Shown here piece by piece: positions 7,847 through 24,190 of a stretch of DNA of 38,381 nucleotides (the stretch's first letter is position 1; every line of letters starts with the position of its first letter). The stretch comes from a virus. Its lineage: Duplodnaviria; Caudoviricetes. The translations under genes were made by a program, and so were the position numbers. The notes beneath the pieces were generated by a model. That model made no database searches, was not told where the DNA came from, and saw only the letters and a list, made by a program, of their open reading frames with translations. Location: the IMG/VR virus record IMGVR_UViG_3300030330_003971, positions 1-38,381 of that record, one strand, 5' to 3'.

Positions 7847-8221
7847 ATGGCTAAAGTTCAAGTTGGCGATCTTGTTTGTATGTATCGTCGTAAAAATAAA
7901 GGCATGGGTATTGTGCTGGAGTACGCAGAGGATTTGATAGAGAAATCTGAAGCTGGCATAACCTTTGAGCAGTTCATGAATGATCTCGCCGCACTTGGCG
8001 ACAAATATGATACACGCGCTGCATATCGCAGAAAACTCAAAGCGTATGCAAAGCATCCAGATATGATTACAACGTGTTTAATTTACAACGCAAGCTGGGC
8101 TAAGAAACCTAAGAAAGAGTTTGTTAGGGTTCGTTGGTTTGAGACACCATCTATGTACGAGGCTAGCCAAACAAAAGAAATAGAAGAATGGTGCCCGATT
8201 GATTGGTTAAAGGCCATTTGA
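7847..8221 (+). CDS. KOW/SH3-like protein with helical insertion
   Basis: VQVGDLV..GMGIVL..VRVRW..WLKAI. Confidence 0.75.
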   Translation: MAKVQVGDLVCMYRRKNKGMGIVLEYAEDLIEKSEAGITFEQFMNDLAALGDKYDTRAAYRRKLKAYAKHPDMITTCLIYNASWAKKPKKEFVRVRWFETPSMYEASQTKEIEEWCPIDWLKAI

Positions 8222-8279: not shown

Positions 8280-8366
8280 GCTTGAGTGGTGGAATAGGTA
8301 GACACAAGAGACTTAAAATCTCTCGCTCAAATGAGCATGCGGGTTCGAGTCCCGCCTCAAGTACCA
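8280..8366 (+). tRNA. tRNA-Leu(UAA)
   Basis: GCTTGAG/CTCAAGT acceptor stem, AGAGA-CTTAAAA-TCTCT anticodon arm, long variable arm, GTTCGAG, encoded CCA. Confidence 0.95.
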
Positions 8367-8384
8367 TTTATTAAGGAGAGCAAA

Positions 8385-8567
8385 ATGAAATACATTATTA
8401 ACCTTTTAATGATTGCTGCGGCAAGTTGGTTTAGTTTTGACTGGGCGACTGACAATCCTCTCAAAGCTAAGTATGCTCGCAAACAAGCTGAAAAGACATT
8501 TGAACAGGTTTATCAAACCGTTTCAGAGCATGTTGAAAATATGCAAGGGGGCACGGGGCAACCATGA
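8385..8567 (+). CDS. Small protein with hydrophobic N-terminus
   Basis: AAGGAG SD; MKYIINLLMIAAASWF. Confidence 0.7.
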   Translation: MKYIINLLMIAAASWFSFDWATDNPLKAKYARKQAEKTFEQVYQTVSEHVENMQGGTGQP

Positions 8568-8776
8568 AACCAGGACAAGTTAAAATGTGGCTGGATCAAG
8601 GCCCAGCGGTTCTATTACAGCAGTGTGATGTTGAGGGTGAATCAATATCACTGAGCGAGGTAGATGATATTGTACCTACCATTGAAAAAGGCTGGGTTAT
8701 TCACTTGCTCATGACTGATGAAATGCTCACGGTGCATGAAGAAACATTACACAATGGATCAGAACATTATGCTTGA
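8564..8776 (+). CDS. Hypothetical small protein (possibly a divergent SH3-like member)
   Basis: ATGA overlap; MKPGQV..VHEETL. Confidence 0.65.
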   Translation: MKPGQVKMWLDQGPAVLLQQCDVEGESISLSEVDDIVPTIEKGWVIHLLMTDEMLTVHEETLHNGSEHYA

Positions 8777-8939
8777 TTACACAATTATGGAATATAATTT
8801 AGAAACTAGAAAATATATCGTCATTGGTATTGCCGAGGGTATTGATGGTAATGTTGCAAAACAAAATTACATTGACAAACACGGTTGGACACCGCGAGAA
8901 GGTATTATTTTGTTTGCGAAACCACCTCTTTGCAGATAA
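8769..8939 (+). CDS. Hypothetical small protein
   Basis: Overlap-coupled; ends just before tRNA-Lys. Confidence 0.6.
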   Translation: MLDYTIMEYNLETRKYIVIGIAEGIDGNVAKQNYIDKHGWTPREGIILFAKPPLCR

Positions 8940-8946
8940 ACTTTGT

Positions 8947-9022
8947 GGGTCACTAGCTCAGTTGGTAGAGCATCGGGCTTTTAACCCGCTGGTCGCAGGT
9001 TCGATTCCTGCGTGACCCACCA
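8947..9022 (+). tRNA. tRNA-Lys(UUU)
   Basis: GGGTCAC/GTGACCC stem, CTTTTAA loop, GTTCGAT, CCA. Confidence 0.95.
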
Positions 9023-9029
9023 CTTAAAT

Positions 9030-9106
9030 GGGCCTTTAGTTCAGTTGGTCAGAGCGTCCCGCTCATAACGGGGTTGTCGTCGGTTCGAGCCCGACAGGGC
9101 CCACCA
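9030..9106 (+). tRNA. tRNA with CAU anticodon, probably Ile2 (lysidine type)
   Basis: GGGCCTT/AGGGCCC stem, CTCATAA loop, CCA. Paired 1:72 and no GGG/CCC anticodon stem exclude the initiator; acceptor stem resembles bacterial Ile2. Confidence 0.85.
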
Positions 9107-9115
9107 TTTAATAAC

Positions 9116-9400
9116 ATGAAAAAAAATATAACATCTGACAAAGTTTGGCAAGCACAAACCCGCACGTTAAAAATGCTGGAGTCACAGCTTATTTCTTTAG
9201 AAAATGCCACAAAAGACTTGCAACGTAAAGTTAAAAATGATAAACTAGATACCTATTACAGCGAAAATTCAGACTGTGTTGCTTATGCTATTAAAGTTTG
9301 GAAGTCGTGCATGCGGCTTGCGGAACTTAAAAAATTACAGTGGGAACTTGAGGGTAGAAATACCTATGGTAAACTTATAGAAAAGGGAGAAGAAGAATGA
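9116..9400 (+). CDS. Hypothetical coiled-coil protein
   Basis: ATG follows the tRNA; helical heptads. Confidence 0.65.
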   Translation: MKKNITSDKVWQAQTRTLKMLESQLISLENATKDLQRKVKNDKLDTYYSENSDCVAYAIKVWKSCMRLAELKKLQWELEGRNTYGKLIEKGEEE

Positions 9401-9639
9401 CAAAAACTATTTTATTAACTTTCGTATTAACTGGTGTGGTTGATTCAACAGATGATTATTTTGCCACTGTTGAGATTAACTTAAATCCTCCTGTCGAGCA
9501 GCCGTCCATGGCTGTTGTACCTATTTCAGCGTTTCCATGCGAGGTTCAAGAGGGCACAAAATTTTATATTTTGAAGTTGACAGAAAATGAAATTCCTGCT
9601 ATTATTTGTGGAGAACATAAACCTTATGATGGAGATTAA
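9397..9639 (+). CDS. Hypothetical protein
   Basis: ATGA overlap, GGAG SD; GVVD..ATVE..P..FPCEVQEG. Confidence 0.7.
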   Translation: MTKTILLTFVLTGVVDSTDDYFATVEINLNPPVEQPSMAVVPISAFPCEVQEGTKFYILKLTENEIPAIICGEHKPYDGD

Positions 9640-9643
9640 AAGA

Positions 9644-9889
9644 ATGATTTACACAGCGATTTATCAAAATACGCAAGGAAAACTTTCATATTGGACCTTG
9701 GCTGGCTCGGCCTCACGCCATTCTGCATGGTTAAAAGCTGCCCGCGCCGGCGGTGCGCAGGACAAATGCTTGATTGCTTTAGTGCCAGGTGTTCATCCTG
9801 TTTATTTTTATTCAGATTTTGTTGAGGATTTTTCTGAATACAGCGCGCCTGATGATATTAAAAATCACGATCTTTATGAAATAAAATAA
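9644..9889 (+). CDS. Hypothetical protein
   Basis: GGAG SD; stop abuts tRNA-Arg. Confidence 0.65.
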   Translation: MIYTAIYQNTQGKLSYWTLAGSASRHSAWLKAARAGGAQDKCLIALVPGVHPVYFYSDFVEDFSEYSAPDDIKNHDLYEIK

Positions 9890-9965
9890 GCATCTGTAAC
9901 TCAGCGGATAGAGTATCGGCCTTCTAAGCCGAGAGTCGTAGGTTCGAATCCTACCAGATGTGCCA
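9890..9965 (+). tRNA. tRNA-Arg(UCU)
   Basis: GCATCTG/CAGATGT stem, TCGGC-CTTCTAA-GCCGA, GTTCGAA, CCA. Confidence 0.95.
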
Positions 9966-10037
9966 TACAGGAGACAGCTTACCCGAACATAAACCAGAGT
10001 CAATCGATCGGACGTTCACAAAATAACCCCAGCACAC

Positions 10038-10113
10038 GCGCCTATAGCTCAGGGGTTAGAGCGTTGTTCTTATAAAGCAAATGTCGCGGGTTCAAATCCC
10101 GCTAGGCGCACCA
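10038..10113 (+). tRNA. tRNA-Ile(UAU)
   Basis: GCGCCTA/TAGGCGC stem, TTGTT-CTTATAA-AGCAA, GTTCAAA, CCA. Confidence 0.9.
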
Positions 10114-11334: not shown

Positions 11335-11663
11335 TGTCTGATGAGAATGACAATGTTGTTGATCTAAAGGCTTTTCGCGAGCAAAAACTTCGCGAAGAAG
11401 CTGAGAAAGAACGTCTTGAAAAAGAGCAACAAGATTATGATGACATTGAGCAAATGCGGATTGTGTTGGTCAAAATCATGGAAGCATTTGGCAAACCTGA
11501 GCAAACTGGTTCCCTTTTTTATGTTCCAATGACAGATGACGACTATTTTAATCATTACAAGTTTGATTCTGGCCATGATGATGATGGTGACTGGTATAGT
11601 TCATGGGAAGCTGAAGGTTTTGATGAGGACGATTATTTATATGGGCCAGAAGAAGATGAGTAA
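11334..11663 (+). CDS. Acidic hypothetical protein
   Basis: TAATG coupling; NVVDLKAFREQK N-terminus, D/E-rich tail. Confidence 0.75.
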   Translation: MSDENDNVVDLKAFREQKLREEAEKERLEKEQQDYDDIEQMRIVLVKIMEAFGKPEQTGSLFYVPMTDDDYFNHYKFDSGHDDDGDWYSSWEAEGFDEDDYLYGPEEDE

Positions 11664-11886
11664 AGTTTTCAAAGCTGGTGATTTTATTCGTGTCAATGAA
11701 ATGACCCACGAAGATTCGATCCCATCATCCAGATTGGGCCATATTCTCGAAGAATACAAAACTATTGTTCATTATACAGACAAGAAGCCACAGAACACAG
11801 GCATATGGAAAGTGTTCATGACCAATGGTCGTATTTTGCGTATTCATGAAATGTTTTTGGAGCATGTTGAAACAAATGAAAGTTAA
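11656..11886 (+). CDS. KOW/SH3-like small protein
   Basis: FKAGDFIRV..LGHIL..WKV..FLEHV. Confidence 0.7.
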   Translation: MSKVFKAGDFIRVNEMTHEDSIPSSRLGHILEEYKTIVHYTDKKPQNTGIWKVFMTNGRILRIHEMFLEHVETNES

Positions 11887-12046
11887 TGATATTGTAACTA
11901 AAGATCAAGTTATGAAAGTTAAAAATCCTACTGGCGTAATCGAGAAGATTACAAGCGACTATGTTGTCATTAAATGGGATGATATTCCCGGCCATTGGCA
12001 TTACACAAAAGAACAAGCTAAAACCATTGAGGTCATAAATGGATAA
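11876..12046 (+). CDS. KOW/SH3-like small protein
   Basis: MKVNDIV..TGVIE..VIKW..IEVING. Confidence 0.7.
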   Translation: MKVNDIVTKDQVMKVKNPTGVIEKITSDYVVIKWDDIPGHWHYTKEQAKTIEVING

Positions 12047-12218
12047 TGTAGAAGCTATTGATATTGCAGAAGGTTACCGCGATGCAAAAGATGAGGCAGA
12101 GTATATTGCTGCTTGGCAACAGCTTATTGATACTGGTTTAGCATGGAATCTTCAAGGTTGGTTTGGCCGCACTGCTAAGTATATGATTGAGCAAGGTTTC
12201 TGTCGTGAAAGTCGGTGA
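12039..12218 (+). CDS. Small hypothetical protein (59 aa, not in the ORF track)
   Basis: GAGG SD; AWQQLIDTGLAWNLQGWFGRTA. Confidence 0.7.
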   Translation: MDNVEAIDIAEGYRDAKDEAEYIAAWQQLIDTGLAWNLQGWFGRTAKYMIEQGFCRESR

Positions 12219-12396
12219 TTTGGTTGCATGGGAGCACGTGCCGCATGAGTTTGCCGAAATACAAACTGATTTTGGTATTATTATCAGCATGTCAAAAACA
12301 GGTCACAAAACAAAATCGGCACAAGTTAGATTTATGAACGGTGATATACACTGGTATGATACACAAAGGTTGGTACTAGTAAATGAAAGTCGGTGA
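12205..12396 (+). CDS. KOW/SH3-like small protein
   Basis: GTG-KVGDLVAW..GIII..LVNESR. Confidence 0.75.
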   Translation: MKVGDLVAWEHVPHEFAEIQTDFGIIISMSKTGHKTKSAQVRFMNGDIHWYDTQRLVLVNESR

Positions 12397-12586
12397 CTTG
12401 GTAAAAAATATTCCCGAACCTGAGCATGGTTTGGGTATTGTCTTGGAAACAGATGTTGAAACATGGGGTTTTCGTGGGGAGCCCATGGGCGTTCGTGTTG
12501 CATGGCCGCGACCCACATATATTTCTGACAAAGGTGGCTCAATTATGTATGCAGATGAAGTGGCGGTGATCAGTGAGAGTGGGTGA
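12383..12586 (+). CDS. KOW/SH3-like small protein
   Basis: MKVGDLV..GLGIVL..VRVAW..VISESG. Confidence 0.8.
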   Translation: MKVGDLVKNIPEPEHGLGIVLETDVETWGFRGEPMGVRVAWPRPTYISDKGGSIMYADEVAVISESG

Positions 12587-12794
12587 TCTGATTGCTTTCA
12601 AACCGAAATCTTTTGGGGATGATGATTGGTCAAACCCGTCTATTGTTTTGAGTGGGTTTGTTAACGATGATCGTGATTTCGGTGGTCATCGTGACATGAT
12701 ATGGATCGTTTGGTGTGATGGTGGTGAATACATGGTCAACGAAAGAAACGACGATATTATGTACTTGACATCTTCTTCACATTTAAAAGGTTGA
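12573..12794 (+). CDS. KOW/SH3-like small protein
   Basis: MRVGDLI..IVL..WIVW. Confidence 0.75.
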   Translation: MRVGDLIAFKPKSFGDDDWSNPSIVLSGFVNDDRDFGGHRDMIWIVWCDGGEYMVNERNDDIMYLTSSSHLKG

Positions 12795-12819
12795 CTGATG
12801 GTAAAAACTGCGATATATT
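12765..12819 (+). promoter_or_regulatory. Early promoter module 4
   Basis: TTGACA 12765, TTCACA 12776, TTGACT 12791, 17 bp, TATATT 12814. Confidence 0.85.
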
Positions 12820-12839
12820 ATCTATATAAGGAGAACAAA

Positions 12840-12941
12840 ATGTCAATCAAAACTGTCCGTAACCTCGCAATCGCCGCTGATGCTATCTGTTGGGGGGCGC
12901 TGGTTTTCTTTTCTGTTCATTTCTTTACTTGCGGAGTTTAA
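12840..12941 (+). CDS. Small hydrophobic peptide (33 aa)
   Basis: AAGGAG SD directly after the promoter; MSIKTVRNLAIAADAICWGALVFFSVHFFTCGV. Confidence 0.65.
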   Translation: MSIKTVRNLAIAADAICWGALVFFSVHFFTCGV

Positions 12942-12943
12942 TA

Positions 12944-13015
12944 ATGGGTGAGTTTGTAATGATGATCGCTCTCGGTTTTCTTATCGGAATGGTTGTAACA
13001 ATGGGGTGTATGTGA
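12944..13015 (+). CDS. Small hydrophobic peptide (23 aa)
   Basis: GGAG SD; MGEFVMMIALGFLIGMVVTMGCM. Confidence 0.5.
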   Translation: MGEFVMMIALGFLIGMVVTMGCM

Positions 13016-13326
13016 ATCCTATTAAAGTTTCTATGCCACCAGCACTTTTTACAAATGCTGATGGTATTCGCTATGCTATCGCTGGATCTGCTTGGGTTGA
13101 AGTCCCAACAGGTACAACTTTTGATGACCTACCCAAATATATGACCTACAAGCCGCGTGAAATCAAACCTGCGGCTGGAGAAAAAGTGTGGCATGTTGAG
13201 GGTAGTAAAGGAAATATGTATACAATCAAGCTGTCTGGTGGAGCATACTCTTGTTCCTGTCCTGGGTTTGGTTTTAGGCGCAAGTGTCGCCACATTACGG
13301 AGATTAAAGATGAAAAACAAAAATAG
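13006..13326 (+). CDS. SWIM zinc-finger protein
   Basis: VEGSKGNMY..YSCSCPGFGFRRKCRHI (CxC-xn-CxH). Confidence 0.8.
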   Translation: MYVNPIKVSMPPALFTNADGIRYAIAGSAWVEVPTGTTFDDLPKYMTYKPREIKPAAGEKVWHVEGSKGNMYTIKLSGGAYSCSCPGFGFRRKCRHITEIKDEKQK

Positions 13327-13435
13327 TTTTAAGGATGATATTGAGAGAGCAGAAAGAAACATTCTTATTTTTAGCTGGGTCGGTATCATCGCGTCTATTG
13401 GTGTGATAGTTAGCGGTATATGGTGCGTGCTATGA
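13310..13435 (+). CDS. Small membrane peptide
   Basis: GGAG SD; C-terminal TM ILIFSWVGIIASIGVIVSGIW. Confidence 0.55.
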   Translation: MKNKNSFKDDIERAERNILIFSWVGIIASIGVIVSGIWCVL

Positions 13436-13638
13436 GAGTTAACGACTTAGTATTATGGAATGGCCACCCTGTTCTTATCACAGAACTTTATGAAAGTAAA
13501 ATGTGGCGCACCAGCACGCAAGGCAGGGCGGTCAGCTTCAAAGATATTGATCCTGAGCCATTTGCCCGTATATTTTTCAAGGGCACGCTGCGCGGTGTAC
13601 CACTGATTGACTTGAAGCCGATTGATGAAACACGGTGA
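13432..13638 (+). CDS. KOW/SH3-like small protein
   Basis: MRVNDLV..LKPIDETR. Confidence 0.7.
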   Translation: MRVNDLVLWNGHPVLITELYESKMWRTSTQGRAVSFKDIDPEPFARIFFKGTLRGVPLIDLKPIDETR

Positions 13639-13828
13639 TCTTGTCCGTGCCTTTTATCGCGATGGCGGGTTTGGAAGCGTTAAGTGGGACGGCCCATTTC
13701 ACGGTTTTATTTGCATGACACCTGACGATAATGAAAATGGTGTATGGCAAATGTGGTGCATTGAGCGCAACGCTTATCATATCATAAGACCTTGGCACGA
13801 TAAAATAGAAGTTGTCAGCGAGGCTTGA
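13625..13828 (+). CDS. KOW/SH3-like small protein
   Basis: MKHGDLV..GFI..WQMW..IEVVSEA. Confidence 0.75.
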   Translation: MKHGDLVRAFYRDGGFGSVKWDGPFHGFICMTPDDNENGVWQMWCIERNAYHIIRPWHDKIEVVSEA

Positions 13829-13879
13829 CATTTCCTTGACAAACAAACCATTGACGGCACAACTCGATTATGCTATATT
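13825..13879 (+). promoter_or_regulatory. Early promoter module 5
   Basis: TTGACA 13825/13836, TTGACG 13851, 17 bp, TGC-TATATT 13874. Confidence 0.9.
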
Positions 13880-13901
13880 ATATAAGTAATCAGGGAGAGA
13901 T

Positions 13902-14099
13902 ATGCAAGTCGGTGATTTAGTAATGTATAGATATGACAGGGTTAAGCATATTGTTGTGGGTTCACCTGTGGGCATAGTCACGCACATCGATCCAGAAGAA
14001 ATCGGAGATCAAGAGGAAGTGTTGGTGTTATGGAACGATGATCAGGGGGTCATGAATCACTCAATAAAATATCTTGAGGTCATCAATGCAAGTCGGTGA
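13902..14099 (+). CDS. KOW/SH3-like small protein
   Basis: MQVGDLV..VGIV..VLVLW..YLEVINASR. Confidence 0.8.
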   Translation: MQVGDLVMYRYDRVKHIVVGSPVGIVTHIDPEEIGDQEEVLVLWNDDQGVMNHSIKYLEVINASR

Positions 14100-14250
14100 C
14101 TTAGTTAAATGTCTGACGGGAAGCTGTGGCACGGCCATCATTGTCGAGTTCCACAAAACATCTGGATTGTATTGGATCATGATGACCCACAACGGTCGCA
14201 TGCGTGCCTTTCAACCGCAATACTTGGAGTTGATCAGTGCAGGTAGGTGA
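14086..14250 (+). CDS. KOW/SH3-like small protein (54 aa, not in the ORF track)
   Basis: MQVGDLVKC..AIIV..YLELISAGR. Confidence 0.75.
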   Translation: MQVGDLVKCLTGSCGTAIIVEFHKTSGLYWIMMTHNGRMRAFQPQYLELISAGR

Positions 14251-14416
14251 TTTGGTAATAATGCCTGGGTCGATTGATCCAATCACGGGTATTGTTTTGA
14301 GAGTAAAATCAGACGGTTATCAACATCGTCTTAATCGTGTTGAAGTATATTGGATTGAGGATGGCGAAGCATCATGGGAACCTGTCAAGTGGTTAGAAGT
14401 TATTAGTTCTTCTTGA
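14237..14416 (+). CDS. KOW/SH3-like small protein (59 aa, not in the ORF track)
   Basis: GTG-QVGDLVI..GIVL..VEVYW..WLEVISSS. Confidence 0.75.
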   Translation: MQVGDLVIMPGSIDPITGIVLRVKSDGYQHRLNRVEVYWIEDGEASWEPVKWLEVISSS

Positions 14417-14467
14417 CATTTCCTTGACATTTGAAGTGTTGACTTTCATGCTCTCAGGTGTTATATT
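14413..14467 (+). promoter_or_regulatory. Early promoter module 6
   Basis: TTGACA 14413/14424, TTGACT 14439, 17 bp, TATATT 14462. Confidence 0.9.
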
Positions 14468-14488
14468 ATATACATGAAAGGGAGAGAT

Positions 14489-14665
14489 ATGCAAGTGCTT
14501 AAAGCTGGAACATTAGTAGGTTGGAGAGGTTCAGTCGGAATCATCCTTGGCAAAGTCGAGAAACGCGGCGCATGTCCAACGGACGTGTGGGTCAAATGGA
14601 CAGACGAAACAGAACTTAAATGGGAAAACTCGATGTTATTGGAGGTGCTTAGTGAAAGTCGGTGA
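14489..14665 (+). CDS. KOW/SH3-like small protein
   Basis: LKAGTLV..GIIL..VWVKW..LLEVLSESR. Confidence 0.75.
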   Translation: MQVLKAGTLVGWRGSVGIILGKVEKRGACPTDVWVKWTDETELKWENSMLLEVLSESR

Positions 14666-14828
14666 CATTGTAAAGCATAAATATGGAACGCTGATGGGCC
14701 ACGGCATTGTTCTTGTTGCTCGTCCAAACATCGGCGGTGTCCGTGCGCTGTGGACCGCGCATGGTCAATCAAAAGTACACGAACTATCGAGTAAGTATTT
14801 GGAGGTGGTGCATGCCGCAAGTAGGTGA
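14652..14828 (+). CDS. KOW/SH3-like small protein
   Basis: GTG-KVGDIV..GIVL..ALW..YLEVV. Confidence 0.75.
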   Translation: MKVGDIVKHKYGTLMGHGIVLVARPNIGGVRALWTAHGQSKVHELSSKYLEVVHAASR

Positions 14829-15024
14829 TATTGTTAAAGTTTTAGGGACTAACGAGAAGAAGATTATTGTTGGTTCTCGCACGGAGATTGTGCCGTTTAC
14901 TGGCGACTGGTCGAACACCGATGAGTTGCGAGCGCGGGTAACATACGAACTCGCAGGCAAACCTGATCGATGGTTTACAATCGGTGACATTGAGATTTTG
15001 TCAGCACGGAGGACGGTAAAGTGA
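14812..15024 (+). CDS. KOW/SH3-like small protein
   Basis: MPQVGDIVKV..IEILS. Confidence 0.7.
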   Translation: MPQVGDIVKVLGTNEKKIIVGSRTEIVPFTGDWSNTDELRARVTYELAGKPDRWFTIGDIEILSARRTVK

Positions 15025-15197
15025 AAGTTGGTGATGTTGTTAAGCATTTTCTTACTGAGCAGATCGGTGTTATACTTGAGGTGCGCGGTGATATTGGTGT
15101 CCATGTTCTGTGGACCACACAGGGTCTATCGCTTTTCGGGGCCGGTCACAAGGAATGGTGTTTCGAGAAAAATGTGGATCTCTTGACAACTGCTTGA
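15021..15197 (+). CDS. KOW/SH3-like small protein (58 aa, not in the ORF track)
   Basis: GGAGG SD; GTG-KVGDVVKH..GVIL..VHVLW. Confidence 0.75.
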   Translation: MKVGDVVKHFLTEQIGVILEVRGDIGVHVLWTTQGLSLFGAGHKEWCFEKNVDLLTTA

Positions 15198-15237
15198 CAA
15201 CTTTACTATTGATCATTACATCTAACCATGCTATATT
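15183..15237 (+). promoter_or_regulatory. Early promoter module 7
   Basis: TTGACA 15183/15194, TTGATC 15209, 17 bp, TATATT 15232. Confidence 0.9.
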
Positions 15238-15262
15238 ATATAGGTAATCAAGGAGGACCACA

Positions 15263-15613
15263 ATGGCCTATCTCAAGAAAGACGACTTAGTAATCATCCC
15301 AGCCGCATCGGGGGCCAACATTCAAGCCCGTGTTGTTGACATGCAGTTTCGGCGCTTCCGTCGCACATGGAAAGATAAGGCGACTGGCGAGAACAAAAGC
15401 CGCTGGAAGTCTGTACCATACGCTGTGTGTGAGTGCTTCCTGGGTGCCCCTATCGGCACGGAGTTTGTTATCCCTGGGTACAAGCTGAAGAACGAAACCA
15501 AGGACGGTGAGAAGCTGTTGGTGCTCCGCGATCAGTATGCTGCTGAGTTTGGTGGGCACTGGATTGAGAAGATGATTGAAGATTCACGCGCAAAGCGGGA
15601 GGCAGCACAATGA
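15263..15613 (+). CDS. Hypothetical protein, SH3-like N-terminus
   Basis: AGGAGG SD; LKKDDLVII. Confidence 0.75.
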   Translation: MAYLKKDDLVIIPAASGANIQARVVDMQFRRFRRTWKDKATGENKSRWKSVPYAVCECFLGAPIGTEFVIPGYKLKNETKDGEKLLVLRDQYAAEFGGHWIEKMIEDSRAKREAAQ

Positions 15614-15948
15614 AAGTTTGGGTGATGCAAGGTATTCACGAAGGCGATTTGTTTTCATCGGTTCACCTGACCGAAAAGGGTGCAGCACTGGCGGCTATTA
15701 CTGACGTGCTGGATTTTCTTGGTGTTGATGATGAGGAAACAGCGTTGAATGTTGTGGGCAACTTGTCAAACTATGGTCTTACAGAGAAAGATGTTGAACA
15801 AACAGGAGCATTTGAGTGGAACCACGACAAGCTGAAAGAAATGACCCGAAGTGAGTTGTGGAGCGTTTTTAGTGCATGGGCTGAACTCACATGGAGCAAC
15901 GACTATGGCTATCAGGTTGATGTAATGGTCAGGGAGATCGCAGCATAA
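15610..15948 (+). CDS. Hypothetical protein
   Basis: ATGA overlap, GGAGG SD. Confidence 0.75.
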   Translation: MKVWVMQGIHEGDLFSSVHLTEKGAALAAITDVLDFLGVDDEETALNVVGNLSNYGLTEKDVEQTGAFEWNHDKLKEMTRSELWSVFSAWAELTWSNDYGYQVDVMVREIAA

Positions 15949-16124
15949 TGCAACTTAAACCTGGACTATTGGTAGAAAGAACTTACGGCGAAGGGCGTCG
16001 GCCTGTCGGCATTATTATCGCGAGAGGTGGTAACGCTCGACTTGGCGAATGGTGGATCGTCGAGTGGGCTGGTAGCAGCAAGCGCGAGATCATGAGTTAT
16101 AGATACCTCAAACCAGTCACTTGA
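15948..16124 (+). CDS. KOW/SH3-like small protein (58 aa, not in the ORF track)
   Basis: MQLKPGLLV..VGIII..WIVEW..YLKPVT. Confidence 0.7.
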   Translation: MQLKPGLLVERTYGEGRRPVGIIIARGGNARLGEWWIVEWAGSSKREIMSYRYLKPVT

Positions 16125-16175
16125 CATTTCCTTGACAAACTATCCCTTGACTAACCCCTCCCACGATGCTATATT
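16121..16175 (+). promoter_or_regulatory. Early promoter module 8
   Basis: TTGACA 16121/16132, TTGACT 16147, 17 bp, TATATT 16170. Confidence 0.9.
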
Positions 16176-16197
16176 ATATACATAAGGAGAAAGAACC

Positions 16198-16383
16198 ATG
16201 CACACACTTCAGCTTATCAACAACTTTCCAACGCTTACACCGATGGAAGAAAACCAAACAAACCTTGAGACTACGATCACAATGATGATGATTATTGGTC
16301 AACTTTCTCAAGAGCCAGTCGATCAGGTTCGCGATACTCTCATCATCGCGGCTGCGGCCATGCACAACCCTGCGGAGGCATAA
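16198..16383 (+). CDS. Hypothetical small protein
   Basis: AAGGAG SD. Confidence 0.7.
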   Translation: MHTLQLINNFPTLTPMEENQTNLETTITMMMIIGQLSQEPVDQVRDTLIIAAAAMHNPAEA

Positions 16384-16385
16384 TC

Positions 16386-16760
16386 ATGGGTTATCGTTCT
16401 GAAGTTATTTTAGCTATTGGCCCTGAAGTCATGCCACAGTTTATGGTCACGATGGCGAAGTGTCCCGAGGCTCGTAAGATGTGCTGGTCTGATCATACCG
16501 AAATGATCAAAGACTATGATGGCATCAAAGGCGCGTTCTTGTTTCGATGGGATCATATCAAGTGGTATGATAGCTATGAGGAAATCCAAGCTATCGCTGA
16601 GTTTTTAGACTGGTGCGAGAGCGAAAGGTTTGAGCATGAAGGCAAAGAAGTTGATGCATGTGACTTTTATCGGTTCGTTCGCATCGGTGAAGAAACCGAT
16701 GACAACGAGGTTCAAGGGTGGGGTTTTGATATTCATATTGAGAGGACCGCAACCTATTGA
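16386..16760 (+). CDS. Conserved phage hypothetical protein
   Basis: MGYRSEV..IKWY..YRFVRIGEETDD pattern. Confidence 0.8.
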   Translation: MGYRSEVILAIGPEVMPQFMVTMAKCPEARKMCWSDHTEMIKDYDGIKGAFLFRWDHIKWYDSYEEIQAIAEFLDWCESERFEHEGKEVDACDFYRFVRIGEETDDNEVQGWGFDIHIERTATY

Positions 16761-16767
16761 TTTTACT

Positions 16768-16916
16768 AGAGAATGTCAAGTCGGCTATCTAACTATACAG
16801 GATAACGGGTTCAATGTCACCAATGAACCCATACCCTTCGGGGAGTTGAAAGGTGGCTGGCGAGTGAAAGACGCGGTGAGAACAGCGTTTCAAGTATAGC
16901 GGGCTTGACATTCTCT
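16768..16916 (+). ncRNA. Candidate structured RNA enclosed by inverted repeats
   Basis: 13-bp perfect IR (16768-80 / 16904-16), extendable to 21 bp; internal hairpins, one with a UUCG loop. Confidence 0.5.
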
Positions 16917-16959
16917 TTACATTTTAACCATTGACAACGGCTTAGTTATGGGCTATATT
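16905..16959 (+). promoter_or_regulatory. Early promoter module 9
   Basis: TTGACA 16905, TTTACA 16916, TTGACA 16931, 17 bp, TATATT 16954. Confidence 0.9.
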
Positions 16960-16982
16960 ATATACATAACACGGAGAGTTAT

Positions 16983-17357
16983 ATGAACGACGAAGTATTG
17001 ACCATCAGACTGACTGAGGCCGAGATCAACATGATCATGGATGCTTTGCATATCGTTGCGCAGACTGGTGGTGACACACGCGGCCACGATATTGCTGAGT
17101 TGCGGGATCTTGAACATGATTTAATGGAGCAGGTTGCACGTCATGATGATCCTGATTGGACTATCGACACCGAGCCTACCGAGATCGCGGAAGGCACCGC
17201 ATTTACTGTAACAGAGGATGATTTTATTGATCACGGCATCCGAGCACGGGAAATGGCAAAAAACCAGAAAGCAACAAGCCGCGCGGCAGAGCGACGTGAG
17301 GAACTACTTGCACGCGGAACGGCATCCCCCGTATTCAATGACCCGATTGACTGGTAG
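16983..17357 (+). CDS. Acidic hypothetical protein
   Basis: GGAG SD. Confidence 0.75.
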   Translation: MNDEVLTIRLTEAEINMIMDALHIVAQTGGDTRGHDIAELRDLEHDLMEQVARHDDPDWTIDTEPTEIAEGTAFTVTEDDFIDHGIRAREMAKNQKATSRAAERREELLARGTASPVFNDPIDW

Positions 17358-17363
17358 GTAAAC

Positions 17364-17714
17364 ATGAGAGAATGTATACACTGTCAATATCCGTTTGATC
17401 CAAACTCGTTTGCAAAAAAGCAAGCTGGTGGCAAGATCAATGAGTGCGCCGATTGCGTTGAAGAACTTGGAACCGAAACCGCAGTTAAGTATTTGGGGCT
17501 GCAAGCTGGCGATGGTAAAGCAGCCGGTATCTCAATCGTTGCGTTTGAATCTAACGAAGATCGAACCGAATACTCGAAGGCTTGGAAGGCTGTGACTGGC
17601 TTTCACAAAGGCAAGTCCTGTCATTTGTCAGGTTCAAACACAACTATCGGCAACCGTCCCATGCGGCATGTGGCCTACAATGCAGGCAACTCAAATCACA
17701 AAGGTAAGGCTTGA
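17364..17714 (+). CDS. CxxC..CxxC zinc-ribbon protein
   Basis: CIHC..CADC. Confidence 0.75.
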   Translation: MRECIHCQYPFDPNSFAKKQAGGKINECADCVEELGTETAVKYLGLQAGDGKAAGISIVAFESNEDRTEYSKAWKAVTGFHKGKSCHLSGSNTTIGNRPMRHVAYNAGNSNHKGKA

Positions 17715-17765
17715 CATTTCCCTGACATTTGAAGCATTGACTTCCACACTCGCGGGTGTTATATT
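17711..17765 (+). promoter_or_regulatory. Early promoter module 10
   Basis: TTGACA 17711, CTGACA 17722, TTGACT 17737, 17 bp, TATATT 17760. Confidence 0.9.
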
Positions 17766-17786
17766 ATATATATGGAAGGGAGAGAT

Positions 17787-17969
17787 ATGTTAGAAGTTGG
17801 AAACATTGTAAAAAGCAAATATATCATGGAAGGCCATCGCGCTCGCATTGGTCTTGTGATGAAAGTGCTACGCGACGGCTCTGAGATTGCACAAGTATAT
17901 TGGCCACACAATAGAACATTCGGCTTTGTCAAGTGCAAAGATATGGAGGTTGTAAGTGAAGGTGGGTGA
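17787..17969 (+). CDS. KOW/SH3-like small protein
   Basis: MLEVGNIV..IGLV..QVYW..MEVVSEGG. Confidence 0.75.
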   Translation: MLEVGNIVKSKYIMEGHRARIGLVMKVLRDGSEIAQVYWPHNRTFGFVKCKDMEVVSEGG

Positions 17970-18138
17970 TCTGGTAAGGGTGGAAACAAAGCATGCTGGC
18001 GGCAAGGTTGGCGTAGTTGTCAAGCCGTGGGGTCAGCACCTTGGCAATAATGCATGGGTCGTTGCACTGCGCGATCACACATGCGCTCGAACAATCGCGT
18101 CCGAATGTGATATGGAGGTAATCAATGAAAGTCGGTGA
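17956..18138 (+). CDS. KOW/SH3-like small protein
   Basis: MKVGDLVRV..VGVVV..MEVINESR. Confidence 0.8.
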   Translation: MKVGDLVRVETKHAGGKVGVVVKPWGQHLGNNAWVVALRDHTCARTIASECDMEVINESR

Positions 18139-18304
18139 TTTAGTGAAAGGTGTACCAGCCGCATCGCCTGAGTACAGAGATTGCATCGGTATCGTTGTTG
18201 GATTATCCGACAGCCGAGGGAGAATAATAGTTAAATGGAACGATATGCAAAGGCCGTACCCCGAGCCTCGTCATTACTTAGAGGTGATCAATGAAAGTCG
18301 GTGA
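18125..18304 (+). CDS. KOW/SH3-like small protein (59 aa, not in the ORF track)
   Basis: MKVGDLVKG..IGIVV..IVKW..YLEVINESR. Confidence 0.8.
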   Translation: MKVGDLVKGVPAASPEYRDCIGIVVGLSDSRGRIIVKWNDMQRPYPEPRHYLEVINESR

Positions 18305-18497
18305 TCTGGTGACATATTACTTTCAACTTCCACGATGGCGTAAAGGTCTATCTGTCCACGTCGGCCTGATTGTCGAGACTGGTAAATATACTGGCAACCG
18401 CGATGTTAAAGTTTTGTGGAATGATAAAACAGAACCAGAAACCGAAGGCAGTCAGCACCTTGCGCTCGTTGATAACATTTGCTTGACATCTTCTTGA
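18291..18497 (+). CDS. KOW/SH3-like small protein
   Basis: MKVGDLVT..VGLIV..VKVLW. Confidence 0.8.
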   Translation: MKVGDLVTYYFQLPRWRKGLSVHVGLIVETGKYTGNRDVKVLWNDKTEPETEGSQHLALVDNICLTSS

Positions 18498-18537
18498 CAA
18501 AGATCCCCTTGCGAACCCCTCTCACCTATGCTATATT
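18483..18537 (+). promoter_or_regulatory. Early promoter module 11
   Basis: TTGACA 18483/18494, TTGCGA 18509, 17 bp, TATATT 18532. Confidence 0.9.
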
Positions 18538-18561
18538 ATAAGAGTAATAAGGAGAAAATAC

Positions 18562-19440
18562 ATGTCATACAATGGAACCGTCCGATGCGGGTACTGCTAC
18601 CAAACTGGTCACAACTCACGCACTTGCCCAGTCAAGAATCAGCGCCTTCGTAAGCGTTATCTGGCTGCTAAAGAAAACCTTGCACTGTGCGAAGCTAACG
18701 GCGATGACAATGGTGCTGCTGGTTATCGTACACAGATGGAATCTTACGCACGCCAATATACCAAGCGCACGCGCTGTAACCCTGACACGGGTGCGTCCAT
18801 TGTCTTGACAAAAGAACAGAAGGCAGAGGCAAAAGCCAAGCGCATGAAAACTATTACATGTTCATACTGTAATGAATACGGCCACACTCGTCGGACGTGT
18901 TCTATCCTCAAAGAAGATCGGCGGGTGTTTATCAAGGCCGCTCAGATGGTCAGGGCTCAACGCCTTGAGGAAATGCGTAATGTGGGTGCTGGCATCGGTT
19001 CTATGGTTATTATGACGCGCTATGGATACTGGGGCGAGAACCAATCATGGGGAGCACGCGAGCGCCCTATGATGCTAACCAGCTTCAACTGGCAAGTGGT
19101 CGCACCTAACCATCGAAACGGCGATTCCGTGTATAGCTTTCAAGACGCAGCTACGTTGAACGAAGGCCCTCACCCACGCGATCACTACGCGGTGACGACT
19201 GAATGCACACAAAGCGTCAACGGTATGGTACACAAAGGCGAAATCACCCTCGCAGGCAAGATCGAACCTCCCGCTGGATGGCTTGAAGCTGACGATCTAA
19301 ACTTCAATCAATACTATCCATCAGGCAAAGCCCGCGAATGGGATTTTCGCGATGCCGAAAATGTTACAAAGTTCAATCAAGAATCAAGCTATTACGGTAC
19401 AAACCATTTCATTGAAGCCCGAAGAAGTTTGGACCTTTGA
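18562..19440 (+). CDS. Protein with two CCHC zinc knuckles
   Basis: CGYCYQTGHNSRTC and CSYCNEYGHTRRTC (CX2CX4HX4C). Confidence 0.85.
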   Translation: MSYNGTVRCGYCYQTGHNSRTCPVKNQRLRKRYLAAKENLALCEANGDDNGAAGYRTQMESYARQYTKRTRCNPDTGASIVLTKEQKAEAKAKRMKTITCSYCNEYGHTRRTCSILKEDRRVFIKAAQMVRAQRLEEMRNVGAGIGSMVIMTRYGYWGENQSWGARERPMMLTSFNWQVVAPNHRNGDSVYSFQDAATLNEGPHPRDHYAVTTECTQSVNGMVHKGEITLAGKIEPPAGWLEADDLNFNQYYPSGKAREWDFRDAENVTKFNQESSYYGTNHFIEARRSLDL

Positions 19441-19491
19441 CATTTCCCTGACAGGATCGCCCTTGCAATCTCTGTCATCCCATGGTATATT
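19437..19491 (+). promoter_or_regulatory. Early promoter module 12
   Basis: TTGACA 19437, CTGACA 19448, TTGCAA 19463, 17 bp, TATATT 19486. Confidence 0.9.
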
Positions 19492-19516
19492 ATATAAGTA
19501 ATCAGGAGAGCACTAC

Positions 19517-19999
19517 ATGAAAGTTCGCAACGCAATCAAGAAAGTCAAATCACACTTCAAGAAACAAGGCATTGACATTGAGGTCACAAACATTAGGGGC
19601 CGGTGGTCATTCCAACATGACGGCTACGTTGGTTCGTTCTTGGCTAATGGTGTACTTGACGATGATCCCAATGTGCTCGATGCCGAGGCGTGCAACTTCC
19701 ATGTTCGCGGTGTCAACGATCACACTGATCTTCATACCGATTACTTTGCAGGCTCGTTCCGTGACAACATTACACAGGTCTGCGAAAGCCTGTTGCCATC
19801 GCCACCTAAATATCCTGTTGGCTCACTGGTGCGAGGTAAGCAGAACAAACGTGCGACCCGTCAGGGCTATGCTGGCCGCGTCGGTCTTGTGATGGAAGCC
19901 AACGCTGGTGACTATGCTCGCATTGCTTGGACTGGCGAGACTCAACCACGTTGGGGCTGGCCGACCTATCCGACCCGCGACCTTGAGCCAGCGACTTGA
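19517..19999 (+). CDS. Two-domain protein with C-terminal KOW/SH3-like domain
   Basis: PKYPVGSLVRG..VGLVM..ARIAW..DLEPA. Confidence 0.75.
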   Translation: MKVRNAIKKVKSHFKKQGIDIEVTNIRGRWSFQHDGYVGSFLANGVLDDDPNVLDAEACNFHVRGVNDHTDLHTDYFAGSFRDNITQVCESLLPSPPKYPVGSLVRGKQNKRATRQGYAGRVGLVMEANAGDYARIAWTGETQPRWGWPTYPTRDLEPAT

Positions 20000-20062
20000 C
20001 AAATCCCTTGACATTCTCTTGACAATAAAAACCTTGACCTTTACGCTCTATGATGCTATATT
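19996..20062 (+). promoter_or_regulatory. Early promoter module 13 (three upstream boxes)
   Basis: TTGACA 19996/20008/20019, TTGACC 20034, 17 bp, TATATT 20057. Confidence 0.9.
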
Positions 20063-20112
20063 TATAGAGTAAGGAAAACAAATCATCAACCTCTCTCACG
20101 GAGAAACACATC

Positions 20113-21195
20113 ATGGCTATCGACTTCGCAACATTCACAACCGTCGCCCCTCACATCCTCGACAACAAGCTGCCCGTGCTTCTGCGCGGTCGTCACGGTG
20201 TCGGTAAATCTGAGGTGGTCTATCAGATCGCCGCTGCCCGTGACCTTCCAGTGGTCGAGCGTCGTGCCAGCCAGATGACCGAAGGTGATCTTCTCGGTCT
20301 GCCTGACACGGCAGACACCGAGATCAATGGCCGCAAGGCTACCACGTGGAACGCCCCTGACTGGCTTGTGACCGCGTGTGAGCAACCTGTGATGCTGTTC
20401 CTCGATGAAGTGGACCGTGCGACTGTGGAAGTCCGTCAGGGCCTTTTCGAGTTGACCGATAGCCGCAAGCTGAACGGCTGGCGCTTGCATGCTGACACCC
20501 TGATCGTTGCCGCTGTCAACGGTGGCGAGCACGGTGCTCAATACCAAGTTGGCGAAATGGACCCTGCTGAGTTGGACCGTTGGACCGTGTTCGATGTGGA
20601 GCCTTCCGATGAGGATTGGTTGAAGTGGGCAACCGACCGCACCGATGGTATTCTGTGGGATTTCATCAACCAGAACCGCATGCACCTTGAGCATCGTGGT
20701 GACTTCGAGCCTAACAAGGTTTACCCGTCACGCCGTAGCTGGAAGCGGTTCAACGATACCGCAGTTTCCACTGGTGTTTTCGGTGAGGAAGGCGACCGTG
20801 ACCTTCTGTTCAACCTCGCGACTGCGTTCGTCGGGTTCGAGGCCGCCGTTGCTCTCCGTGACTTCGTTGAAAAGTACGAGTGGCAAGTGACGATCGCTGA
20901 CATTCTTGACAATGGCGAGATCGACAAGACCGCTCAGTGGGGCATCAATGACCACGCTGCTATGATTGAGAAGTTCGAGGCATCTGACGTGTTCTCTGAG
21001 ACTCTGACCGAGACGCAGGTGACTAACCTCGCCAACTACTTCGTAACCCTGCCTTCCGAGGTAGCCATGAAGCTGTGGACCGTTCTCGGTGACACCGACA
21101 ACATTGACAATGTTGTGGCACTCCACAAGGCCGAGGCGTCCGATGGTCGCCGTGTCTCTGACCACCTTGTTGAGATCCTTGGCGGTAACTCTTGA
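20113..21195 (+). CDS. MoxR-like AAA+ ATPase
   Basis: Walker A GRHGVGKS, Walker B LFLDE, sensor-1 AAVN, DPAELDRW, PSRRSW. Confidence 0.9.
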   Translation: MAIDFATFTTVAPHILDNKLPVLLRGRHGVGKSEVVYQIAAARDLPVVERRASQMTEGDLLGLPDTADTEINGRKATTWNAPDWLVTACEQPVMLFLDEVDRATVEVRQGLFELTDSRKLNGWRLHADTLIVAAVNGGEHGAQYQVGEMDPAELDRWTVFDVEPSDEDWLKWATDRTDGILWDFINQNRMHLEHRGDFEPNKVYPSRRSWKRFNDTAVSTGVFGEEGDRDLLFNLATAFVGFEAAVALRDFVEKYEWQVTIADILDNGEIDKTAQWGINDHAAMIEKFEASDVFSETLTETQVTNLANYFVTLPSEVAMKLWTVLGDTDNIDNVVALHKAEASDGRRVSDHLVEILGGNS

Positions 21196-21395
21196 AATAC
21201 AAGGTAGGCGACCTATTAATCAGGGAGTACGATAAGTGCCCCTGTGTGGTCGTTGAGGTGGCCGAGAGCACCAAAAAGGAGTGGGGAACCCTTGATGCCA
21301 ACAGACGCCAGTACAGGCTATTTGATGGCCATTCTGCTGCACAGTGGTATGCCGACACGGTTCTCCATGCTGCCTTTCGTGTTCCCATTCCTTGA
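21192..21395 (+). CDS. KOW/SH3-like small protein
   Basis: MKYKVGDLLI..VVVEV. Confidence 0.7.
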   Translation: MKYKVGDLLIREYDKCPCVVVEVAESTKKEWGTLDANRRQYRLFDGHSAAQWYADTVLHAAFRVPIP

Positions 21396-21446
21396 CATTC
21401 TCTTGACATTTGAACCCTTGCTTTTTCCCTCATCCCGTGCTATATT
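21392..21446 (+). promoter_or_regulatory. Early promoter module 14
   Basis: TTGACA 21392/21403, TTGCTT 21418, 17 bp, TATATT 21441. Confidence 0.9.
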
Positions 21447-21469
21447 ATATATATAGAAAGGAGAGTTAC

Positions 21470-22723
21470 ATGTCCGACGATACCAAACCAGCCCCGTTCA
21501 ATCTCAACATGCACACCGCTCGCTTGCTCATGCGCGAGCCGTTCTTTGCCGCTCTGTCTCGTCGCATTGACAAGACAGCGAGCACCGCAGTTCCGACCGC
21601 TGGCGTCCGTGTCAACCCTGACACCGCTCAGTTTGAGCTGCTTTACAACCCTGAGTTCATGGGTGCCCTCAAGCCTGAGCACCAGCTTGGTGTTCTCATG
21701 CACGAGTTCTATCACATTATCTTCGAGCATGTGACTGGCCGCAAGCCTGCCGATGGTCTCAAGCGTATCGACAACATTGCGATGGACCTCGCTATCAACG
21801 GCCTGCCCGAGATGGCTGGCAAGCTGCCGTGTGAAGCCGATCCTGGCCCTATCATGGCCGATGGCACTGGTATGAAAGGCGTGTTTCCCGGCGAAGGCCC
21901 GTTTGCTCACTTGCCTGCTAACAAGACCTATGAATGGTATCTTGAAGCACTCAAGGATATGGCCGAGAACCAAGAAAGCAGCGGCGACGGCCAAGGTGAG
22001 CCAGGTCAAGGCGATGGCGATCCCTTCGGTGGCATGGATTCACTTGACAGTCACGATCAGTTCGGTGATGGCGATAGCACCACTCAAGAGATTGCTAAAG
22101 AGCGATTGAAGGAAGCTGTAAAGCAAGCTGCCGAGGAAGCTGAGAAGGCGCGTAACTGGGGCTCTGTTTCGTCTGGTATGCGTCAAGATATTATGGACCG
22201 CGTTGCAACTAAGGTTGACTGGCGCAAGGTGCTCCGTTACTTTGTCAAGACTTCACAACGCGCTGACAAGCGTTCAACCCCTCGACGCCTGAACAAGCGG
22301 TTCCCAAAGATCCACCCTGGCAAGCGCGTTCGCCGTCAAGCCAAGATCGCTATCTCCATCGACCAGTCTGGATCGGTTGATGATGGTATGCTTGCCGCGT
22401 TCTTCTCCGAGTTGAACAAGCTGGCCGAGATTGCTGAGTTCACGGTGATCCCGTTTGATACCGAGGTGGCCGAGGACAAAGTATATACTTGGAAGAAAGG
22501 CCAAACCAAGAAAACCGAGCGCGTGTTGACTGGCGGTACATGCTTCAACGCTCCTACCAAGTTCGTCAACGATGGCGGCTTTGATGGTCACATCGTCTTG
22601 ACTGACTTGTGCGCTCCGAAGCCTATCGCGAGCAAGTGTCAACGTATGTGGATGACCACTAAGCAATACGCTGCTCGCCCCTACTTCCAAACCAATGAAC
22701 GTGTTATCGCAATCGACTGCTAA
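21470..22723 (+). CDS. HExxH metallopeptidase-vWA protein (DUF2201-like), MoxR partner
   Basis: HEFYH, NIAMDLAIN, acidic Gly linker, MIDAS DQSGS, GGT, LTD; AAGGAG SD before ATG 21470. Confidence 0.9.
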   Translation: MSDDTKPAPFNLNMHTARLLMREPFFAALSRRIDKTASTAVPTAGVRVNPDTAQFELLYNPEFMGALKPEHQLGVLMHEFYHIIFEHVTGRKPADGLKRIDNIAMDLAINGLPEMAGKLPCEADPGPIMADGTGMKGVFPGEGPFAHLPANKTYEWYLEALKDMAENQESSGDGQGEPGQGDGDPFGGMDSLDSHDQFGDGDSTTQEIAKERLKEAVKQAAEEAEKARNWGSVSSGMRQDIMDRVATKVDWRKVLRYFVKTSQRADKRSTPRRLNKRFPKIHPGKRVRRQAKIAISIDQSGSVDDGMLAAFFSELNKLAEIAEFTVIPFDTEVAEDKVYTWKKGQTKKTERVLTGGTCFNAPTKFVNDGGFDGHIVLTDLCAPKPIASKCQRMWMTTKQYAARPYFQTNERVIAIDC

Positions 22724-22735
22724 GGAGCCGAGATC

Positions 22736-23038
22736 ATGAAGTATTATATCAGTAAAACAGATGTGGAGATTAACGAGGCTGGAAGGCTCTCAGGCAGCGA
22801 GCGCGTGTTGACTAAGCCTGACACCCTGAGAGCGACCAAGGAGAGCTTCAGACGCCTTACAGCCATCGGCATTGATAACCTGCACATCTGTAAGCACCCT
22901 GCTAACTCAAGAAGGTGGGGCAAGCTGCAACGAGCCCAGAACAAACTGCGTAAAACCCGCAAAATGACCCTTGCTGACGTTGCTAAAGACCTTGCGGAGT
23001 TGGATGCGGAGAGCAAAGAGAAAGAAAGCAACTCTTAA
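22736..23038 (+). CDS. Basic hypothetical protein
   Basis: AAGGAG SD. Confidence 0.75.
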   Translation: MKYYISKTDVEINEAGRLSGSERVLTKPDTLRATKESFRRLTAIGIDNLHICKHPANSRRWGKLQRAQNKLRKTRKMTLADVAKDLAELDAESKEKESNS

Positions 23039-23089
23039 CATTCCCTTGACAACTTAATCATTGACCTTTTCACTCCCCTATGCTATATT
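23035..23089 (+). promoter_or_regulatory. Early promoter module 15
   Basis: TTAACA 23035, TTGACA 23046, TTGACC 23061, 17 bp, TATATT 23084. Confidence 0.9.
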
Positions 23090-23118
23090 TATAGAGTAAT
23101 CAGCAAGGAGTATTGCAC

Positions 23119-23952: not shown

Positions 23953-23981
23953 GGTCGAGACTACAACAAAAGAATATACTT

Positions 23982-24065
23982 ATGCAAATGTTTATTATTG
24001 GTTTCTTATCTGGTACAACCGTATCAGTTATTATTTTAGATTATCTTATTCGTAATAGGAGATAA
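23982..24065 (+). CDS. Small hydrophobic peptide (27 aa)
   Basis: MQMFIIGFLSGTTVSVIILDYLIRNRR. Confidence 0.4.
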   Translation: MQMFIIGFLSGTTVSVIILDYLIRNRR

Positions 24066-24068
24066 AGC

Positions 24069-24188
24069 ATGTCAAAGCTGTATAATGACTTCAAGCAATA
24101 TCAGTTTTCTTCGTGGGAACGTATTATTATAAAGTTTGAACTTATTACCTTTCCTATCGTGTGTATTATAGAAGTGTATTACTGTTAG
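24069..24188 (+). CDS. Small peptide (39 aa)
   Basis: AGGAG SD; hydrophobic C-terminus. Confidence 0.45.
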   Translation: MSKLYNDFKQYQFSSWERIIIKFELITFPIVCIIEVYYC

Positions 24189-24190
24189 AG

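Follow-up and report, generated by a model that had tools for sequence, protein, structure and literature searches.

A dual-frame coding junction as a probable site of gene shuffling among small predicted beta-barrel genes of a phage clade

How phages gain or swap tiny accessory genes without breaking their neighbours is a long-standing question. Integrons are arrays of small promoterless genes whose content and order change, and their attC sites carry inverted core motifs. In T4-type phages, two reports describe how small ORFans of hyperplastic regions are exchanged without an integrase. The recombination runs between promoter early stem-loop (PeSL) elements, which are short, conserved and placed at boundaries and include a stop codon, a Shine–Dalgarno (SD) motif and a start codon, and mini-circles have been demonstrated for these elements (PMC2839356, PMC4122927). 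Mosaicism at boundary sequences is exemplified by the gene 67–68 exchange of Island3 and Brujita at similar C-termini of ~50 bp with conserved boundary sequences, and the same paper gives most phage mosaic boundaries as being without shared sequences (PMC3029335). At the T-even internal protein (IP) locus, variable small proteins have a conserved N-terminal sequence and shuffling is hypothesised (PMC4122927, PMC3012670). Here we describe a junction between tandem small genes in a 38-kb virus record, IMG/VR IMGVR_UViG_3300030330_003971, whose 38,381 nt were analysed in full and are called the window. A 14-nt overlap at this junction unites upstream stop, SD and downstream start in coding sequence, and a block of ~32 nt around it is probably the site of homology-directed gene shuffling.

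A gene junction read in two frames

A search of the window for RTG-N6-GGTGA gives 17 copies, where 100 shuffles give 2.02 ± 1.55 (shuffle maximum 6). An earlier sequence-only reading had named ten 14-nt junctions and a 17-nt variant at 14812; all ten are present, as is the variant, and at each listed site the TGA closes the upstream open reading frame (ORF) and the RTG opens an ORF beginning (M/V)(K/Q/R)(V/H)GD, the dual role proposed for it. With the genes lettered A to T along the window, and every array feature given here on the + strand, the junction blocks are C to D at 12193–12224 (overlap 12205–12218), D to E at 12371–12402 (12383–12396), E to F at 12561–12592 (12573–12586), G to H at 13613–13644 (13625–13638), I to J at 14074–14105 (14086–14099), J to K at 14225–14256 (14237–14250), L to M at 14640–14671 (14652–14665), the 17-nt variant M to N at 14800–14834 (14812–14828), Q to R at 17944–17975 (17956–17969), R to S at 18113–18144 (18125–18138) and S to T at 18279–18310 (18291–18304). 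The first of these has a weak SD and a non-family upstream gene, C (12039–12218; phrog_3908), which terminates in the motif, as had been recognised, and contributes the upstream tail only. Two copies that had been overlooked, at 13902–13921 and 15021–15040, are head-only and their TGA stops no gene; the former opens the first gene after a promoter and the latter has a 4-nt GTGA overlap to gene N. The upstream tails read earlier were recovered as NESR (12396, 18138, 18304), SESR (14665), SESG (12586) and NASR (14099), with RESR, DETR, SAGR, SEGG and AASR in addition. GAGGT, proposed as the upstream SD, is found in 6 of the 11 junctions, the remainder having GGAG, GGTGA or no clear SD, and the common block is longer than the ~25 nt (or 14) first assumed, running for ~32 nt from −12 to +20 by linkage over 576 junctions.

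In loci of relatives anchored on a MoxR gene, which rather than motif-selected loci supplied the overlap and codon frequencies, family-to-family joins number 368, of which 298 have an overlap of exactly 14 nt; of 58 overlaps between non-family genes, 3 have this length. An SD 4-mer stands at −13 to −5 in 455 of 526 junctions. The tail Glu codon is GAG in 356 of 368 genes with a junction after them and in 8 of 34 with a promoter after them, so that Glu is kept for the protein and its GAG spelling for the SD. Written with GAG, the last strand L-E-V-I spells an SD motif 5 nt ahead of the next start; the SD sets the start 5 nt on, the phase is thereby fixed, and the first in-phase stop is the TGA within the Gly–Asp codons, hence the 14-nt overlap. 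In L260 and L262, two of the labelled relatives, the Gly codon is GGG and gene C runs on for eight codons. PMC10666635 takes the range −8 to +10 as predictive of termination–reinitiation; −14 falls outside it, and the translational coupling proposed by the sequence-only reading is not supported. The internal SD suggests that translation of each gene can start independently as well.

Two of these codon asymmetries favour an explanation in which protein, SD and stop constraint alone keep the sequence and genes move by illegitimate recombination, with selection retaining the joins at gene ends. GAG follows the need for an SD, and GTT at codon 3, with which the upstream protein would end in Trp, is found in 2 of 423 inner genes against 8 of 43 head (first-in-operon) genes, a rarity that agrees with the C-terminal bias against hydrophobic residues described in PMC7246954. 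Some non-family joins, moreover, share only a few bases (junctions before T). This explanation is unlikely in our judgement, for reasons that the relatives supply below. In the codons themselves, GTC (29/43), GGT (45/56) and GAT (49/56) are retained by head genes, for which an upstream frame is lacking, against frequencies of 26%, 35% and 37% in codons 2–8 of 800 non-family genes (p = 2e-7 for GTC and 2e-9 for GGT), so that dual-frame constraint is real and, together with the SD, accounts for a large share of the conservation but not for the whole. A 5′-end A/T codon bias was considered as the cause of the head word and was rejected on the 5′ codons of the same 800 genes.

Synonymous over-conservation, which the sequence-only reading had named as a check, is seen in the head genes, and single-frame four-fold sites are almost unconstrained, with a pair identity of 0.31 (−5) and 0.30 (+21) where sites outside the block have ~0.26. 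Homogenisation by exchange is the simplest source of the remaining conservation that we can infer. A further reading, compatible with shuffling by homology, holds that selection maintains the block as a device for shuffling, a second-order effect on evolvability beyond the needs of protein, SD and stop. The codon excess in the head genes would fit it, as would some 1100 distinct proteins in 724 clusters with scrambled gene orders; the near-freedom of the four-fold sites speaks against it, and homogenisation by exchange, or recent moves of inner genes to head positions, predicts the same head excess. We hold such selection to be possible yet doubtful.

Gains, losses and reordering among relatives

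Gene orders are scrambled across the relatives, all of them metagenomic contigs (with labels such as L146 and L163); motif-selected loci were included in the gene-order, linkage, neighbour-retention and indel analyses. In L146, whose conserved part is 89% identical to the window, D and E have changed places, C is missing from this position, R stands behind K, and O carries the 17-nt head of N, an N-type head fused to the body of O in L146/L239. The 17-nt variant mostly travels with gene N, with exceptions both ways; a tie to the upstream gene had been entertained and was rejected, the relatives showing mostly the association with N. Among 27 distinct copies of gene K, the upstream partners in 14-nt register fall into at least 11 different clusters. 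Over the 576 junctions (110 + 116 informative pairs, upstream and downstream), almost complete linkage to the upstream gene extends to −13 and has faded by +18, and linkage to the downstream gene climbs over the same span, which places crossovers across the whole ~32-nt block rather than at one point. High-identity blocks begin at about −12 or 0 and finish at about +14 to +25, with homology overlaps on both sides.

The strict set of rearrangements comprises 44 structural differences, deduplicated and taken between blocks of 94% identity or more, and 32 of its 88 ends fall within junctions, which make up 4.8% of the sequence; it supersedes a first tally of high-scoring segment pair (HSP) ends (46/180 in junctions) that was noisy from diverged pairs. 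Among the 17 clean indels, 7 have 14–26-nt direct repeats of the junction and 3 have 11–78 nt of promoter-cassette homology (two by the printed sequence, the script label being 'other'), so that all 10 with at least 11 nt of homology sit at junctions or promoter cassettes. L163 and L197 differ by one gene of 176 nt with a perfect 20-nt repeat at its bounds; as this gene is joined by 14 nt to the gene before it and by 4 nt to the one after it, the head half suffices by itself. Per orthogroup, retention of the next gene is 0.18 at junctions (confidence interval 0.08–0.29; 45 groups, 97 pairs), 0.25 at promoters (21 groups, 72 pairs) and 0.73 at ordinary tight joins (0.58–0.87; 28 groups, 104 pairs). 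Pooled values are less extreme (24/304, 71/415 and 145/650, respectively), and gene calls for non-family genes are rough. The gains, losses and reorderings by short-homology recombination that the sequence-only reading had proposed do fall at the junction, where short direct repeats accompany them, and the opposing expectation, of conservation fully explained by dual-frame constraint and no rearrangement at junctions, held on neither count.

The same comparisons weigh against constraint without homology. The exact 14-nt register persists after a change of neighbour, indels bear the 14–26-nt repeats at both ends, linkage switches gradually across the block, and the body of one gene carries the 17-nt head of another; if raw reads bear out the repeat-bounded indels, that explanation is already contradicted. 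Assembly errors at a short repeat could be suspected in contigs assembled from metagenomes, with repeats of only 14–26 nt. We regard such errors as very improbable, since contigs from independent runs spanning 11500–13837, 14443–15261 and 16909–18316 give 0 differences from the window, whose gene order over those stretches is therefore not a misassembly; different, unrelated-looking genes stand between the junctions of relatives, and the same rearranged joins recur in separate contigs (e.g. L230/L234/L240 and L260/L262/L263). Contig joints mostly have sides shorter than 36 nt and unknown inserts, and were left out of the counts of recombinants.

A site-specific recombinase of phage or host, integron- or Xer-like, might instead recognise the junction, and the near-invariant core at +10 to +20 and the clustering of block ends at +17 to +20 are what it would lead one to expect. 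It is quite unlikely, however, given that neither PF00589 (tyrosine recombinase; controls 14/14) nor PF00239 (serine recombinase/resolvase; controls detected) matched in any of five complete phage relatives, that crossovers are spread, and that the invariant bases are those forced by codons. Rad52 was likewise found in 0/5 of these genomes. The 11 junctions hold one lone attC core 7-mer, with no inverse core and no core-motif pair, and share no dyad (longest self-complementary word 3–8 nt). The earlier view that neither integrase nor attC is involved agrees with these results, and its likening of the array to an integron was overstated, as the cargo is nearly one family, unrelated genes give the upstream tail only and crossovers are spread. 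Of 783 ORFs that follow a junction, 738 are assigned to the barrel family by score even with the head removed, against 50 of 783 when shuffled. Upstream ORFs were flagged as non-family in 87 of 783 cases, some of them spurious, and include SWIM-finger genes and gene C, often with an ESR tail; unrelated genes ending in this tail have the junction on one side only, not both. The SWIM zinc-finger gene of the window (13006–13326) overlaps a non-family gene by 17 nt, and its homologues in many relatives have an ESR tail and a 14-nt join to barrel genes.

Homology-directed shuffling at the ~32-nt block is the reading that we consider probable. The joined tail and head of small predicted beta-barrel genes would form the site at which whole genes are gained, lost and reordered, likely through general homologous recombination by the phage's own RecA/UvsX-like protein, and each new join would keep the reading frames and likely a working ribosome-binding site. 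A RecA-family gene is present in 5/5 complete relatives. The geometry may have begun as a by-product of conserved protein ends and tandem duplication, shuffling may proceed by unequal crossing-over between co-infecting genomes or excised circles, and repeated exchange would homogenise the head DNA.

Several observations count against this reading. The evidence is from contigs alone, with no enzyme, circle or read-level recombinant observed, and the block is short for RecA-type enzymes, at 76% mean identity with a median perfect run of 9 nt; only 16% of junction pairs share a perfect run of at least 14 nt. Seven of the 17 clean indels have at most 1 nt of homology, and 2 of the 7 at junctions belong to a single, heavily rearranged pair (L017/L044). 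The loss of a gene has in any case to end close to a gene boundary, and in these arrays that boundary is the junction; the compared pairs of relatives are not phylogenetically independent. In the looser tally 87 of 180 HSP ends lie within genes (53/180 aside), many of them reflecting divergence and not rearrangement. Adjacent near-duplicate gene pairs number only 3, fewer than frequent unequal crossing-over might leave.

Promoter cassettes, gene family and phage setting

A repeated promoter cassette of sigma70 type and ~80 nt divides the region into short operons and is probably a second kind of exchange site, at the operon level. It has 12 copies in the window within 12764–24999, also at 19436 and 20007. 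The first lies at 12764–12840 behind the family genes D, E and F (12205–12794; 63, 67 and 73 aa), and the second, at 13824–13901, starts at the stop of its upstream gene and separates G and H (13432–13828) from the operon I, J and K (13902–14416). The cassette at 14412–14488 precedes the operon L, M, N and O (14489–15197), which is followed by a cassette at 15182–15262; those at 16120–16197 and 16904–16982 come after family gene P (15948–16124), and the operon Q, R, S and T (17787–18497) is flanked by cassettes at 17710–17786 and 18482–18561. Upstream of gene C are family genes A (11656–11886) and B (11876–12046), with an 11-nt overlap. Each cassette has two extra TTGACA-like hexamers 5′ of the true −35, the first of which often gives the stop of the upstream gene, and the tandem hexamers could be an operator. 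Four cassettes folded no better than their shuffles (z −0.04, −0.39, −0.51 and 0.28). There would thus be two tiers of exchange, of operons at promoter cassettes and of single genes at coding junctions. Outside the barrel arrays, another recurring N-terminus, of MKIT..QL type, stands at rearrangement ends in L161/L162 (around positions 7039 and 8963 in L161).

The 19 family ORFs of the window encode 54–76 aa and align as a single divergent family (mean column identity 22%). Pfam and PHROG scans named none of these 19 proteins, and BFVD gave no match at E ≤ 0.001; the Atlas matches are viral clusters without a name, together with a cluster of which 52% of the members have SH3-C_UBE2O. Gene S, the only one modelled, gives a small beta-barrel of five strands (predicted local distance difference test, pLDDT, 89.7) whose best matches are PWWP, Tudor and KOW (Z 8.5, 8.3 and 8.0; root mean square deviation 1.7 over 53 residues). 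From this model the family proteins are predicted to be Tudor/KOW/PWWP-like, SH3-like small beta-barrels, whose first strand would be encoded by the gene head and whose last by the L-E-V-I tail. The fold itself shows no function; the position of the genes behind strong promoter-like sites makes the proteins putative early host-interaction factors. Weak barrel-profile matches occur outside the arrays in longer or isolated ORFs (7847–8221, 19517–19999, 25099–25371, 25322–25586 and 36712–36985), and at L152:6522 a 138-aa ORF reads through two barrel units in one frame.

The relatives form a large clade of 185–200-kb phages, and the sequencing runs with matching DNA are labelled marine metagenome, bar one coded organism label. 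No RNA data set was among the runs listed, from which nothing follows about expression. PF07068, the Gp23-type major capsid protein, is present in 5/5 complete relatives, and the window itself has no structural region. The motif is restricted to a stretch of ~7–16 kb in 4/5 complete relatives and is more spread in the fifth. A blastn search with the MoxR gene matched no annotated phage genome, and the genome index matches were fragments in metagenome-assembled genome (MAG) bins only. In most relatives the variable region adjoins a conserved anchor, made up of the MoxR-type AAA ATPase and the next gene, of 437 aa (phrog_1297 and phrog_1314; 20113–22723). Directly upstream of the arrays lie five tRNA genes (Leu-TAA, Lys-TTT, Met-CAT, Arg-TCT and Ile-TAT; 8280–10113), and a nucleotidyltransferase-like protein (5449–6384) has weak Polbeta, NTP_transf_2 and SidM_N matches under the cut-off.

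Shuffling at the junction would let a phage swap early-infection genes intact. More tentatively, the clade, a widespread one, may run an integrase-free, self-compatible cassette library of hundreds of small-barrel effectors, in which the coding ends of the genes themselves would serve as a common connector (SD, start, stop and crossover site) and selection keeps the joint recombinogenic for redealing host-takeover or anti-defence repertoires between co-infecting phages. A very large, unannotated family of predicted small beta-barrels behind strong promoter-like sites is a screenable candidate library for host interaction, and the junction array is a natural design for scar-less operon assembly. 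The boundary is visible, countable and written in coding sequence, which makes it possible to measure in natural populations how long the homology is, how widely crossovers spread and at what rate genes are shuffled, and to rebuild the array on plasmids.

Comparison with known systems

A literature search, incomplete for subscription papers, found no description of a dual-frame coding junction array of this family. For co-directed overlaps in H. volcanii, PMC10666635 gives −4 and −1 as the usual lengths, −8 as less frequent and anything longer as rare. The junction shares with translational coupling a co-directed overlap and an SD within the upstream gene, and differs from it in that the −14 overlap dominates. 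With integrons the array has in common small promoterless genes whose content and order change, but it has no integrase, attC or attI, its crossovers are spread and its cargo is nearly one family. The internal proteins of T-even phages are targeted to the capsid and have diverse folds, whereas the head of the junction array is the first strand of one predicted fold and the tail participates too.

The PeSL is closer. The 14-nt junction likewise unites upstream stop, SD and downstream start, indels and replacements map there in close relatives, and the clade has a Gp23-type capsid, a feature of the T4-like supergroup. The closest parallel is the promoter cassette, a repeated sigma70 promoter with SD and start that runs from the upstream stop and stands at indel ends. 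In contrast to a PeSL, the 14-nt junction has no promoter, the promoter-like sites being only in the separate cassettes, and no stem-loop (4 of 11 junctions were folded, with z of −1.15, 1.27, −0.64 and 1.92). It is coding in two frames, spans ~32 nt, consists of gene ends from a single paralogue family and acts within operons at the level of single genes; mini-circles are a PeSL feature, whereas the junction array is known here from contigs. As in boundary-sequence mosaicism, general recombination at short, similar coding ends would add or remove one gene, but the Island3/Brujita exchange is a single event, and here hundreds of interchangeable genes share a dual-frame joint. The junction is best described as a coding-sequence variant of PeSL and boundary-sequence shuffling, and not as an integron.

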